Positions 50,973 to 58,897 are shown, counted from the first letter of the stretch. The stretch is DNA of 64,000 bases from Gammaproteobacteria bacterium (GCA_014238615.1 JABAAT010000007.1:40736-104735); one strand, 5' to 3'. A program made the numbers and translations. Notes: generated by a model from the sequence alone, not told the origin.

Positions 50973-51637
50973 CTCATTTCACCTCACAAGACCTCTTCGT
51001 ATCTCAACCATGAATGGCTCCCCCTGGTCAGCACCCGACGTGTCAATGTCAGTCTTCCTCCCTGGCCTTGCCAGTTAATCGAGCCGTAGTCTGTCTGAGC
51101 TCTTCCGCGACATTTCCTACTATATTAATAACCTGGATGGGTTGTCTATTTTTCATACCCGCAAGCTCATTTTTTCCACCATTAAGCTCCTCTTCTACAC
51201 CCTATTAGACCGTTCAACAACTACATCAGCTCGGGCAGAACAAGCTGGATAATGCTCTTTCGCCATTCCATGGACCAGGCACCTTAGCAGATGTTTCAAG
51301 CGTACTTTATTAAGGTTATTCGTAGGACGCCAGTGACACCAATACCTAAGAATTTCTCCTGTACCCGTGAGGGTGTCCTTGCACCGGTCCAGGAAGAACC
51401 CATGACCAGCTCTCTCAGCCTTACTACCACAAGGCTAGCATACTGCCCCGAAAAAAGCAACCTCCAAGAGCTCAGTAAAACAACTACTTCCAAGACCCTC
51501 TTAAAAGCTCTTTTATATGGGACTAATAGGTAAGATTAGGTAATCATATCACCATAATCTACACAAATTCCTACGGTTGAGGACACACCTGTCAAGCGCC
51601 CGTTTGTCTAAAATTAAGAAATCAGTATTGGGATCTT

Positions 51638-52175
51638 GCGAATGCTGCACTGGACCGTTTTTATCAACGATTGATTGATAGGCTCGGAGGCCGCAGGATG
51701 GCTTCCTGGAGGGGAGCCCCCCTGGGCGTGCCCGCGGGCGCCCCTGGGGCGTCCGCCGCGAGGCAACGCGGATTGTGCCCGCAAAGCCCAGTCCGAGCAG
51801 TTGGACGGCCAAGGCAACCGCGCTGCTCCCGCCGCGGGCCGCGTGTCGATCAAGCCGACGCAGGCTGCGGGCGGCCGCTTCCACCGTGCGGCAACCGCCG
51901 GCGAATGGAACATACACCTGTGGCAAGCGGTTGCCGGGACTAGTCGGGCGGCAGTCCGCCGCGCACTTCCAGCGCCAGGTGAGACGCGCCGCGAAAAGGG
52001 CACGGGAAAACGCCGCATGGGTGCGTTTTTAGGGAGGGCCAGGGGGTAGTCCCCACTTGTGGCCGGCCGCCGCGCCAGGCCGACCTATGCCGGACGGCAC
52101 GATGGAACGGCGCCCCCGGCGATGACGAGCGCGCCCAAGCCGACCAGGCACCAAGTCAGGCGGACTTCCAAGTCC
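51638..52175 (+). repeat. GC-rich conserved element, copy A, of a 4-unit tandem array
   Basis: Shares its 5' block (GAATGCTGCACTGGRCCGTTTTTATCAACGATTGAT...CCCCCCTGGGCGTGCCCGCGGGCG...GCGAGGCAACGCGGATTGTG) with copy B. Shares its 3' block (...GCGCCGCGAAAAGGGCAC.GGAAAACGCCGC...GGGGTAGTCCCCACTTG.GGCC...CTATGCCGGACGGCACGAT.GAACGGCG) with copies C and D. Confidence 0.8.
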
Positions 52176-52891
52176 GTCCAGGTCGGTGGAGCGGAGGATT
52201 CAGGCGGCACTGGAAGAAGTGCGGACTCCGCAACAGCCGGAGCCTGCCGCCCGACCCCCGACTGCAGCCGCCGCCACCGGAAATCAGGCGGCAACCGGAG
52301 CCGGCCACCAACACGAGCGTGGATTCCGGGCCCGGCGGTCCCTGACCAGCCGCCCGGGGCCGGGATCGGGGGAAATGTCACACCAGGCTAGTCTTTTCCC
52401 CCACCCTCATCCTTTTACCCGCCTGATCAGCTCATCTGCTATCCGCCCGGCCACCTTATATCCTCTTTACTTGATCAGTAGATCTGCTGTCTGCTTGACC
52501 AGCTCACCTTCTACCTGATGCTGCCCGCCTATTACCTTTGCCAGTGCAGCCTGTCTCTGTCCTTCCAACTCCCCTATTTTTCAACCACGCCTTGATTGGT
52601 GAGCTTCATGAACTTTATTATGGTTTTATATAGGTCCTCAATTTTTCTCTCGATTTCTTTAATTTCCCCAAAGCTTTTATCCATTTTCTCATGCAACTTA
52701 TTGAACCATCCCCGTAACTCATTTCCAGCACGCACTGCCAGCAGCAGCGTTCAGGACAGCCAGCACAGCGAATTGATTAGCCCCCAGTCGAAAGCAAGGA
52801 CGAAGGCGAGGAAATCCCCCATCAGCTCATTATCACTAGACAAAAAAGACCAAGAGCGCACACAGAGGCGCGACCGGTCGCCTACCTACGT

Positions 52892-53254
52892 CTAGCCCAA
52901 GTGGCCTTGGTGTGCCTTTGGTACCTCGATACTGTGATCATCGACCGTGACGGCTGGTTGTCCACTCCCTTTTCTGCTCACTGGGCTAATCGACGGTGTG
53001 GTATCGTAGCCTGACCCTACCGGCTTTTTGGCAATCATTTCTTCGGCCTTTCGTATCATCTGGTCCAGCTCTTCCTTCCTGCGCCAAAGCTTCGCCAATT
53101 TTCGTTCTTTGGCGTCAAACTCCCGCTCTTTAGCAAATTTCCGTATTTGAAGTCTCACGTAGTTCCACATCGTAATTGGCCCAATCATGGCAGTCCTCCC
53201 AGGCTCTCCAAAAAGTAAAAAGATCGATGACATGCACCAAGTCGGGCAGCGCAT
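52892..53254 (-). CDS. small coiled-coil hypothetical protein (island family 1)
   Basis: MWNYVRLQIRKFAKEREFDAKERKLAKLWRRKEELDQMIRKAEEMIAKK. Paralogous to the ORF at 56729..56995 on the other strand. Confidence 0.3.
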   Translation of the reverse strand: MRCPTWCMSSIFLLFGEPGRTAMIGPITMWNYVRLQIRKFAKEREFDAKERKLAKLWRRKEELDQMIRKAEEMIAKKPVGSGYDTTPSISPVSRKGSGQPAVTVDDHSIEVPKAHQGHLG

Positions 53255-53426
53255 CCAGTCATTTCCTCTACCTGCCTTTGAAGATCAAAAATATGCACGC
53301 TCCATGCGCCAAAAGCCGGGTTAAGCAAAAACAAGCCTATTGTGTGCAAATTGTCCGAATTATCAGAAAAATTATACCATGGCAGCGAACTGCTTTAACT
53401 GACAGCTTTTTCAGAATTGGGACCTT

Positions 53427-53690
53427 GTGAATGCTGCACTGGGCCGTTTTTATCAACGATTGATAGGTTCGGAGGCCGCGGGATGACTTCCGGGGGGAAG
53501 GCCCCCCTGGGCGTGCCCGCGGGCGACCCTGGGGCGTCTCGCCGCGAGGCAACGCGGATTGTGTCCGCAAAGCCCAGGCCGAGCAGCTGGACGGCCGGGG
53601 CAACGGCGCCGCGGCCGCCGCGTGCAACGCTCCGGTCAAGCCGGCGCAGGCCGCAAGCGGCCTGGTTTCACCGTATGGAGATCTAACTAG
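53427..53690 (+). repeat. GC-rich conserved element, copy B (5' part only)
   Basis: About 90% identical to the 5' 260 bp of copy A. Confidence 0.8.
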
Positions 53691-53947
53691 TTGATTTAAC
53701 TATAGTATTCTTGGTGGTTGTTGCTTCTAGACCACAAGCGGAAGACCTGCTCAAAACCCTGGCCGCAAGGTTCCGGAGTCCGAGGACGCGGGTCTTTTTG
53801 TCTTGACGGGAACAGGCTTTTGAGGCATATTTATGCTCACGCCTACGCTTGATCGTGTGCGTGTGCAGCGGTTGGGTGCCTGCCCACCTTCCGCTGGATT
53901 TCGCGGCATGATAGAGAACGATCGGGCGGGTTTTCAATATTTAGCCT

Positions 53948-56995: not shown

Positions 56996-57070
56996 ATCGT
57001 CCCAGGGTAGGGAGGGGAAAGACCTCGGATTAGGCCGCCAAGGGTACTCCTGCGCTCTTTCCCGTGTCAA

Positions 57071-57409
57071 TTGATCCGAATGCGCAATGATCACAATAGT
57101 CCGTCAATGCTGCCGGCGGTGCTGCTGGCGGTGCTTGGGTGGCTCTTGGCGGTGTTCCTGGCGGTGCTCGGGTGCTCCAGATGGTTTCTCACGTTCGACG
57201 CTGTTACCCTCCTTGCTGTCGTGGTTGTGGTTTTCGCGGTATTGCTCTTCGTGTCCCGCGAGCTCAGGTTGGTACAAGACAATCAAATCCGGTCACCGCA
57301 CACCCGGTATTTACCTGGTTCCTTTAGAAAAAGGGAAGGGCGAGGCCAGGCAGCTGGCAGCTGGTTGACTATGCGCTTCAGCTATTGGAGCAAGAGAATG
57401 CCGGGCTGA
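57071..57409 (+). CDS. small membrane hypothetical protein, possibly fused by frameshift to the downstream coiled-coil fragment
   Basis: Two hydrophobic helices (AVLLAVLGWLLAVFLAVLG, LLAVVVVVFAVLLFV) encoded by imperfect 15-mer repeats. The +1 frame continues into 57385..57597. Confidence 0.3.
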   Translation: MIRMRNDHNSPSMLPAVLLAVLGWLLAVFLAVLGCSRWFLTFDAVTLLAVVVVVFAVLLFVSRELRLVQDNQIRSPHTRYLPGSFRKREGRGQAAGSWLTMRFSYWSKRMPG

Positions 57410-57680
57410 TGAAACAGCAGGCTGAACTATTGATAGAGCGGGCCGAGCTGATAGACGGGCGGACAGGTGGGTTGCTGAGTGGGCAAAAGAACAGGCCGGG
57501 CGGAAGAAAAAGCAGGACAAGTGAGCGTCAGATAGATAGGATGCGAAGACCTGCCCCAAGGTCGGCTGCACGGTGGTGCCTGCAGCCCGCGGAGTGATAA
57601 GTGATTGATGGCGGGTGTAGAGGCCGGGAACGGCCTCTTGGCAGAGGTTGATTGTCCGCGGGTTATAAAGAAACCGCGGC

Positions 57681-58215
57681 ACCCCGCCGTGGACCTTCGC
57701 GCGGGCGGGCCATGGCGCGTAGGCGGGCCATGGCGGCCCGGAAGTCCAGGCGCACCTGGGAGGTCCAGGGGCAAGTCGGTGCGCCGCCGCCTTCCACGCC
57801 ACCGCCTTCCATGCCGCCGCCTTCCATGAGGTAGCGATAGGGTGCACGCCGCTCAATCCGGCGCAAAACCAGGGCCGGGAGAGCTAATCCGCTTCCATGG
57901 ATGCGCCCGAGGTGTTGTAAAAAGCATCCACACTGTATGTAGCGGCCGGCGGCTGGACAGCGGCCGTGAAGGCCGGTTGCGGGAGGTAGCAGGCCGAGGC
58001 AACGGGCCGCGACCGCCGCGGGCGGACGGTGGGCCGGTCACGCCGGCGCGGGCCGCGGGCGGACGGTGGGCCCGCGGGCGGGGCAGACGCTTCCACCGTG
58101 CGGCAACCGTCGGCGTCCGGAACATGCACCTGGGGCAAGCGGCTGGCGGGCGGCCTGGTCGGGCGGCAGTCCGCCACGCACTTCCAGTCCAGGCCGGGCG
58201 CGTCCAGGTCGGCGG
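57681..58215 (+). repeat. GC-rich conserved element, copy D (long form)
   Basis: Collinear with copy C; contains an internal 3x expansion of a CGCCGCCTTCCATG 15-mer. Confidence 0.8.
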
Positions 58216-58533
58216 CAGTCATCCCTGTGATTTGCGGCTCGGGCCCACGAAGCCCCGTAGAGCGCTGTTTTCAGGATTTTAGAGACGATCCGGGACTCGA
58301 TAGGGCCGGGACTCCCACATCGGGAAGCGCCTCAACCGGGGGGGATTCCCCAAAAAACCATGGGATAAACTGTCTTATCCTGGAAGATAGATGCTTTTAG
58401 GCTCTTTTCGGTGTGTTTAAGCACACTTTTACCTGGCCGTGATTGAGCTGGTATTGCGACTGGTGTTTTCCATGGCGCCGCCACCGGTTTTGCGGGCGCC
58501 GGACCCCACCCGGAAGGGTTACTGAAAATGGGG

Positions 58534-58561
58534 TTGACAAGGTACGCACAGGTGTATTATT
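58534..58561 (+). promoter_or_regulatory. candidate sigma70 promoter for the porin gene
   Basis: TTGACA (58534-58539), 15-16 nt spacer, TATTAT (58555-58560). Would give a ~335-nt leader. Confidence 0.35.
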
Positions 58562-58897
58562 CTTGTCACCGCTGAGGCGTAGGACCGCCTCGCAGTAGGT
58601 GAACGGCCTTCACCCGTGGGGCGCGGAAGTCGCCCTAAGAACGTGGGAGGGCCCGAAACCTTGGGCTTTGGGAGAGCCTGGGACAGTGAGGCACGGGAGA
58701 GCCTCAAAGGTAAGGATGACCCTCGAATCGAGGGGCGTTGGATCGCCTTGGTTGTTTTAAGGGCATGGGAGCCCGTACGCACTAAACCGTGCGGGGTAGC
58801 CCGTACGAAACATGGTAATCCCGAGATGCTTCGGATCACTTTAGCCAGCACGTCAGCTGTTCAGGCGATCCAGGCCAACATTGAGGAGATATCTATA

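Follow-up and report, generated by a model that had tools for sequence, protein, structure and literature searches.

What are the four GC-rich blocks that lie in one orientation within AT-rich DNA on the chromosome of an uncultured gammaproteobacterium? The stretch studied here, called the window below, comprises 64,000 nucleotides (nt) of a Gammaproteobacteria bacterium genome (GCA_014238615.1, JABAAT010000007.1:40736-104735), and the blocks, named A to D, lie between positions 51622 and 58222. A sequence-only reading had described them as four tandem units without a conserved reading frame, matching no known class of element. Our analysis points to a more ordinary answer: with a probability of roughly 0.72, the blocks are decayed copies (pseudogenes), on the minus strand, of a small protein gene whose family we name W, and form a relic family of mobile-DNA origin. 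The layout itself was confirmed. Block coordinates were taken from a blastn self-comparison of the 50.5-58.6 kb region with the whole window and from a repeat search, and these recovered four collinear copies within ~16 bases of where they had been placed before. The blocks have 61-76% G+C, the flanking DNA 44-55% and the backbone about 63-69%, so that the contrast between the blocks and their AT-rich surroundings also holds. A and B match over 51622-51887 / 53411-53674 with 85% identity, A and C over 51863-52189 / 55848-56175 with 84%, A and D over 51869-51972 / 58081-58187 with 85%, and C and D over 55483-55956 / 57678-58186 with 74% and numerous insertions and deletions (indels); this is the module sharing described earlier, in which A and B have one left block, C and D another, and A, C and D the right block in common. 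A core of ~100 nt is common to all four (B and C: 53585-53653 / 55730-55798, 83%), and the E-values of the block-to-block matches, 1e-13 to 1e-106, are well past chance. For D the self-comparison block is 57678-58187, with homology reaching ~58215-58222. Short tandem repeats of 18 nt (55796-55865), 15 nt (57783-57828) and 19 nt (58016-58081), in 2-3.6 copies, lie inside C and D and explain several of the differences in length among the four copies. No fifth copy was found in the window or within 8 kb beyond it.

The first hints of coding lie in one minus-strand frame, where changes are synonymous only in WKCAADCRP (A against C) and in FYNTSGASMEAD (C against D) and where indels compensate each other; the four translations were therefore aligned and searched exhaustively. 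The HMMER search of these translations against 1.84 billion protein representatives gave one convincing match (E 1.4e-7), a 92-amino-acid (aa) protein, P0128, which is encoded on an 867-bp contig (L152; European Nucleotide Archive (ENA) ERZ23489137) from a sister sample of the same study (SAMN14422896). Searched back by tblastn, P0128 matches A with 51% identity over 76 aa (E 6e-15), and B, C and D with E-values of 9e-5, 3e-3 and 3e-5. It also matches 283 plasmids in PLSDB, with 42-55% identity over residues 1-76. A profile hidden Markov model (HMM) built from outside sequences only, namely P0128 and five plasmid proteins, was then searched against 1,494 six-frame segments of the window, and its four best matches there are A, B, C and D in this order, all on the minus strand, with E-values of 3.9e-12, 1.1e-4, 1e-3 and 3.6e-3, while the next segment has 0.48. 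Copy A has 34% identity over 68 residues to the Xanthomonas W protein and ~67% nucleotide identity to the DNA encoding P0128, and the open reading frame (ORF) 57884-58222 in D retains both the ATG and the N-terminus of the family (MTAADLDAPGLDWK..). These profile and translated matches demonstrate homology to the W family for one minus-strand frame of each block, broken and unselected as it is in every copy, and the earlier statement that no frame is conserved and no known class applies has to be withdrawn. The blocks would be GC-rich because they were coding sequence for a Gly/Ala/Arg/Pro-rich protein, and not because they are an RNA or a DNA site. The case is a cautionary one, showing that GC-rich repeats in AT-rich DNA without a conserved frame can be pseudogene copies whose protein ancestry becomes visible only after an exhaustive profile search and then a translated plasmid search.

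The W family is best seen in plasmids. Each W among the full-length plasmid matches listed is annotated as a hypothetical protein of ~87-105 aa, and the family has the consensus ..MPVxxALDALGLYWKRDPDFxPxKDKxTVRLNVxLGGGVVELLATGPKWYDTRAxxGGGGAIDLAMHLLRLDFVxAVK... Most of the plasmids bearing it are mobilizable or conjugative, and their main hosts are Xanthomonas, Klebsiella, Aeromonas, Pseudomonas and Enterobacter. Five plasmid contexts were inspected, and in each of them W stands directly downstream of the replication gene. Three of the five (X. fragariae pB, a Morganella plasmid and a Nitrosomonas plasmid) have the order par-rep-W, in pB as resolvase-parA-hypothetical-parC-rep-W; the records of P. 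aeruginosa pPE52IMP and a Marinobacter plasmid begin at rep, followed by W. The W genes of Xanthomonas and Morganella differ at 19 first, 5 second and 48 third codon positions, with 38 synonymous and 18 non-synonymous codons, which marks W, by codon statistics, as a genuine protein gene under clear purifying selection in plasmids. It is a backbone gene in a widespread group of proteobacterial plasmids, both mobilizable and conjugative. W probably corresponds to 'orf1' of the IncP-6 plasmids, as suggested by the gene order and by a Tn5563-type mer module beside W in pPE52IMP; in the IncP-6 par-rep type, orf1 follows repA (p10265-KPC/pCOL-1) and is broken at two sites by Tn4401b and Tn5563 (PMC4785139). 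The comparison with this IncP-6/IncG-like rep-adjacent ORF, known here from Xanthomonas, Aeromonas, Pseudomonas and Nitrosomonas plasmids, shows both likeness and difference. All four window copies are homologous to it in one frame and follow its motif order, LDALGL.WK / P..K....V..NV / GG..VE / GP.W.D / GGGGAIDLA..LL.L.F. Unlike it, they are chromosomal, fourfold and without a rep or par neighbour, and they are interrupted or truncated, the most conserved residues being gone. The finding thus ties an uncharacterised but widespread rep-adjacent ORF of IncP-6-like replicons to chromosomal relics in an uncultured gammaproteobacterium. A likeness of W to the CHC2 zinc-binding domain of DnaG-type primases was also considered. 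Pfam and PDB profile searches do not support it, nor does BLASTP against the N-terminus of E. coli DnaG (with an approximate query sequence), nor an AlphaFold model of W, whose fold matches are meaningless at a predicted local distance difference test score (pLDDT) of 56.

The window copies have all decayed relative to the plasmid gene. An intact W ORF has ~87-105 aa, a start codon and no interruption, and none of the four copies contains one. A lacks the start codon and the first ~12 codons of W, and in both A and C the interruption comes after about codon 12. B has lost its N-terminal half and is truncated at 53674, where AT-rich DNA starts. C is split by the expansion of the 18-nt tandem repeat (55796-55865) and by a segment named m5 (55966-56157), while D has no m5 and its C-terminal half is put out of frame by +4/-1 nt indels. 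The residues most typical of the family have changed as well: GPKW[YF]D is replaced by SLRRLD, GLRRLD, GPRQRD or GPRRRD, with its Trp lost in all copies, and GGGGAIDLA is replaced by GGSSAVALA or GGRGAVAPA and is out of frame in D. Mismatches between copies lack 3-periodicity, and the length of many indels is not divisible by three. Even in the best-conserved block the substitutions by codon position (e.g. 8/6/4, 4/7/4, 4/9/6) have no third-position excess. The ratio of non-synonymous to synonymous substitution rates (dN/dS) is 0.5-1.3, the lowest of the six frames being ~0.5 and the best frame varying by pair. The G+C of the blocks is level across the codon positions, against 0.8/0.4/0.7 in a real gene nearby; within the blocks, a coding-type asymmetry is seen in the m5 segment alone. 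Taken together, these comparisons demonstrate the disruption of every copy and the lack of purifying selection on the copies. All four share derived states missing from P0128 and the plasmids, such as the lost Trp of GPKW, and they would therefore have arisen by duplication in situ of an already divergent copy rather than by independent acquisitions.

It should be asked whether the blocks could instead be functional, fast-evolving W paralogues, encoding small Pro/Arg/Ala-rich proteins under relaxed or diversifying selection and perhaps paired with a hydrophobic ORF. D has its ATG-started 112-codon ORF with a family-like N-terminus, frame-restoring indel pairs occur in C against D and in A against B (+1/+11, -1/+4, -17/-13, +1/-4), motif-local changes are synonymous, G+C at third codon positions is slightly above that at second positions in the W frame, and contig L152 carries an intact W followed by a 29-aa hydrophobic ORF. 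Against this, a start codon or the N-terminal half is missing from A and B, invariant family residues are replaced in every copy, substitutions lack 3-periodicity with dN/dS about 1 for C and D in the W frame, and the gene caller left the W frames of the blocks uncalled. A frame-profile search of 5.8 billion proteins also gave no close relatives, and a six-frame concatenated protein query returned nothing, but low-complexity words filled the limit of 8,000 candidates in both searches, which makes these negatives uninformative. We consider functional paralogues unlikely. Several observations nevertheless weigh against decay from a plasmid gene. The copies are 74-85% identical, with some stretches at 92-95% (such as 55625-55717 against 57867-57960), whereas the duplicated spacers between them are only 62-68% identical; since pure neutral decay would not leave the copies more alike than the spacers, gene conversion or residual function must be invoked. 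The synonymous-only changes in the two motifs named above and the 112-codon ORF kept by D point the same way. On the side of origin, no other plasmid gene (rep, par, mob) was detectable in the window, and blastn gave no DNA-level match of the blocks to plasmids. Finally, Pfam, NCBIfam and PDB searches returned no match for W, and its structure model is of low confidence. Gene conversion is the likeliest source of the extra similarity, in accordance with the mosaic relationships described below, while one or more of the copies may still have some residual function.

High G+C, many local hairpins and conservation relative to the flanks are also what a family of structured non-coding RNAs would show, as the sequence-only reading had proposed among its candidates, and one or two compensatory pairs are indeed present in the core hairpin. 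The RNA reading is nevertheless largely refuted. Rfam gave no match to the blocks at gathering thresholds or at E<=5, the minimum-free-energy z-scores of the four blocks are -1.73, -1.35, +0.86 and +0.31, the RNAalifold covariation terms are positive on both strands, the core hairpin, which all copies share, does not exceed shuffled sequence in stability, and the protein homology accounts for the sequence; an RNA family is thus very improbable.

The mosaic itself admits another explanation, that the blocks are kept as cis-acting DNA, being recombination or insertion hot spots from a rep-proximal plasmid region that are homogenised by gene conversion and serve as substrates of local rearrangements. 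Relationships change along the alignment: in columns 71-100 B groups with C and D, and in columns 197-216 A and D are the same. The copies share identical stretches of 27-35 nt, the blocks are rich in palindromes, the gene order of the closest relative places the array at an inversion junction, and IncP-6 orf1 downstream of repA was itself hit at two sites by Tn4401b and Tn5563 (PMC4785139). However, the mosaic segments are only 20-40 nt long, so the signal is statistically weak; the four copies, being all in direct orientation, could not bring about inversions themselves; the core hairpin is not stabler than shuffled sequence; and the ORFs scanned nearby include no recombinase. Such a role appears quite improbable.

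Known classes of mobile and repetitive DNA fit poorly. The absence of transposase, integrase, reverse transcriptase and attC-like sites claimed earlier holds for the part of the window's ORFs that was scanned. An insertion sequence (IS) or miniature inverted-repeat transposable element (MITE) was rejected, with no transposase domain in the ORFs scanned, no terminal inverted repeats at the ends on reading and no dispersed copies in the window. An integron or gene-cassette array was likewise rejected, with no attC-like R''/R' core sites on reading and no IntI or recombinase among the ORFs scanned. The array does resemble chromosomal integron arrays in that conserved elements in the same orientation alternate with unrelated small ORFs of lower G+C. 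Its element, however, is former coding sequence of 260-690 bp and not an attC hairpin of 60-140 bp, its ORFs lie on both strands, core sites are missing, and no IntI was seen among the window ORFs scanned. A satellite is not supported either: head-to-tail homology over the whole unit is confined to units 3 and 4, and the spacers of units 1-2 lack homology to theirs. The satellite and gene-cassette candidates are thus unsupported; the 'decayed mobile or phage relic', also named in the sequence-only reading, is the one favoured by the W homology and the broken copies. Sigma-54 promoters or enhancers linked to the neighbouring regulator were rejected, with no TGGCAC-N5-TTGC in the blocks and no enrichment in the window, and so was a G-quadruplex element, whose motif is found in C only. 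Exact-pattern scans for the block DNA in genome and metagenome collections gave nothing or chance matches, and blastn of the blocks gave none in phages, as in plasmids.

The m5 segment deserves separate discussion. It is flanked on both sides by a 7-nt TGGAAGT-like direct repeat, and it contains short hairpins and the tail of a small hydrophobic ORF (..LEVRLTWCLVGLGALVIAGGAV..); the gene caller called the small ORFs with this tail at 52085-52381 and 56072-56272. With its repeat, m5 could be an IS/MITE candidate, but a microhomology-mediated deletion in D explains it equally. Contig L152 supplies a comparison. P0128 is the closest relative, with the identities to copy A given above, the contig is similarly GC-rich, and a small hydrophobic ORF (LEVRLT...) is also present: its 29-aa ORF is homologous to the m5 ORF and lies ~170 nt downstream of W. 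There are three differences. On L152 W is intact, with a coding-type codon-position G+C of 0.75/0.59/0.83; the hydrophobic ORF is downstream of W, whereas in the window it is inserted in W; and a perfect 15-nt direct repeat, CCGGCGGCACCTGGT, stands on either side of W and the 29-aa ORF, at 38-52 and 632-646, a repeat not present in the window array. This repeat may be the boundary of a ~0.6-kb cassette. In A and C, the N-terminus of W is fused to the hydrophobic ORF and is followed by an N-terminally deleted W, a layout most simply explained by microhomology-mediated rearrangement of two adjacent modules of W plus ORF. A further reading, which appears quite improbable, would make W and the hydrophobic ORF a self-contained ~0.6-kb cassette that inserts and amplifies in the lineage, for example as a miniature toxin/regulator or addiction-type module from a plasmid replication region, with the array as its graveyard or nursery. 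The copies of the array would then be kept alike by gene conversion and would fuel local rearrangements.

We then return to the relic family and its setting. The backbone of the window is an ordinary gammaproteobacterial chromosome (gltB, aroB, pilMNOPQ, thiG, uvrA, glyQS, petABC-sspA), and the neighbours of the array are chromosomal too, comprising petABC, a sigma-54 regulator, a porin gene and a secretin cluster, with no adjacent plasmid replication gene. Among species representatives there is no close relative, cytochrome b identity being at most 69%. The closest available relative, on a 487-kb long-read contig (ERZ20067936 ptg000381l), has a regulator 73% identical. Its sigma-54 regulator and petABC are preceded, in the same orientation, by the secretin, MshE-type ATPase, T2SSF and further genes; the gap upstream of the regulator is 424 bp, against 13.4 kb (50322-63711) in the window, where the secretin cluster is inverted relative to the regulator and petABC. 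No W was found in this relative, and a petB synteny search of 80 other Proteobacteria gave neither array nor W. By this gene-order comparison, the 13.4 kb that hold the array are a lineage-specific region, placed at an inversion junction and missing from the closest relative. The region is AT-rich and sparsely coding, and holds the array, the porin gene, a third, inverted paralogue of the coiled-coil ORF X described below, and ankyrin-like fragments. Genomic-island remnants are similar in being lineage-specific and of atypical composition, with truncated or frameshifted copies, no mobility genes left and a rearrangement junction. Unlike them, the region has no att sites, tRNA target, integrase or recognisable island genes, and its relic gene is GC-richer than the host while the surroundings are AT-richer. 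When Rep, ParA/B/C and neighbouring proteins of three plasmids were searched by tblastn against the window, no plasmid-backbone relic appeared, the sole non-W matches being weak resolvase matches inside the sigma-54 regulator gene. As neither plasmid genes nor plasmid DNA matches are present, we infer a plasmid origin for the window copies from the usual location of the family.

The events might have run as follows. One divergent W copy, with a tiny hydrophobic ORF as on L152, would have entered the lineage together with other AT-rich accessory DNA and then duplicated in situ. Earlier duplications, truncations, microhomology-mediated deletions or insertions (m5) and repeat expansions, with gene conversion as a probable contributor, would have given the mosaic of A/B against C/D, and the last step would be a tandem duplication of a ~2.2-kb unit (coiled-coil X, transmembrane (TM) ORF, coiled-coil Z and W) into units 3 and 4. 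This would be an ordinary process, in which acquired DNA decayed and duplicated, and not a new kind of element; the analysis documents the 13.4-kb accessory region at the junction and flags a possible cassette of W and a hydrophobic peptide.

The array is moreover real and not an artefact of assembly. The window is part of a 128-kb metagenome scaffold (ENA ERZ23490334), and Logan assemblies of other runs, made independently, agree with it at 100% identity over 50604-55538 (A, B and the start of C) and over 55681-57751 (C into the start of D). A collapsed or chimeric repeat might be suspected, given that the source is a short-read metagenome assembly and that the Logan contigs break inside C and D. 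Yet the 100% matches span A to the start of C and run from C to D, and the copies differ by 15-26%, so reads tell them apart easily, which leaves mis-assembly, a check on which the sequence-only reading had called for, with hardly any probability.

Positions of the array, its spacers and flanks are collected in Table 1.

Table 1. Blocks, spacers and small ORFs of the array region, with positions counted from the first nucleotide of the window
Feature	Position	Strand	Remarks
Left flank of A	50514-51621	-	no homology to other spacers
152-aa coiled-coil ORF	50514-50972	-	left flank of A; beside 650 nt of non-coding DNA, ~45% G+C
Copy A	51622-52189	-	W-family relic; profile match 51768-51986; found by self-comparison, tblastn and HMM
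Copy A, A/B-type tail	51622-51767	-	
m5 segment in A	51976-52165	-	~190 nt; absent from D
A-B spacer	52190-53410	-	GC-rich extension of A to ~52400
Small ORF of A-B spacer	52574-52735	-	
Small ORF of A-B spacer	52892-53254	-	weakly X-like
Copy B	53411-53674	-	C-terminal half of W only (profile match 53551-53658) and A/B-type tail
Spacer of unit 3	53675-55482	+	holds X1, Z and postZ
X1	53960-54160	+	66-aa coiled coil, unit-3 spacer
Z	54415-54972	+	185-aa coiled coil, unit-3 spacer
postZ	55041-55195	+	unit-3 spacer; inverted copy at 50372-50529
Copy C	55483-56175	-	W relic; profile matches 55708-55803 and 55867-55980; C/D-type tail 55483-55690
m5 segment in C	55966-56157	-	~190 nt
Spacer of unit 4	56176-57677	+	collinear with unit-3 spacer; G+C asymmetry of coding type
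X2	56756-56995	+	79 aa, coiled coil, unit-4 spacer
TM ORF	57071-57409	+	unit-4 spacer
Z-like coiled-coil remnant	57385-57597	+	unit-4 spacer
Copy D	57678-58222	-	ORF 57884-58222; HMM match 58088-58216

The spacers show how far the earlier description as four tandem units can be kept. Those before C and before D are homologous in four collinear patches (62-68% identity), and both contain the same plus-strand series of a coiled-coil ORF X, a membrane ORF and a coiled-coil ORF Z. Around A and B the DNA shows no relation to them, and its small ORFs lie on the opposite, minus strand. Because only the spacers of C and D are homologous, the tandem-unit description is fully valid for units 3-4 alone, which are true tandem duplicates, and not for units 1-2. 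A likeness of the GC-rich stretch before C (55195-55483) to the A/B tail was rejected as not above shuffled controls. Spacer ORFs searched against Pfam, NCBIfam, PHROGs and PADLOC gave weak coiled-coil noise only, with no phage or defence matches, and tblastn of two of them against plasmids gave nothing.

Some minor features of the region were also observed. The X ORFs form a lineage-specific family of small, strongly charged coiled coils in both orientations, with X1, X2 and a minus-strand member at 62278-62424, and possibly the weakly X-like ORF of the A-B spacer as a further one; the paralogues are 48% and 31% identical to X1, and the family has no database relatives. The sequence that follows Z recurs in inverted orientation between the 152-aa ORF and the sigma-54 regulator (50372-50529 against 55041-55195, 76-86% identity), with a short echo at 57628-57663. 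Upstream of the porin gene (58898-60226) lie a match to a sigma-70-like promoter (58534-58563) and a GC-rich leader of ~330 nt (to 58897), which looks structured and matches no Rfam family. At ~61116-61391 of the window (9217-9406 of sequence L087) the ENA scaffold has ~170 bp more of a local repeat, the assemblies differing in repeat length, and the ORF fragments beside it look ankyrin-like (60933-61079, 61368-61514). Farther away, a Dam-type N6-adenine methyltransferase gene (33475-34464) lies in a ~54% G+C dip at 33-34 kb, and the pilM-pilQ region (7644-12698) has ~55% G+C against the ~65% of the backbone.

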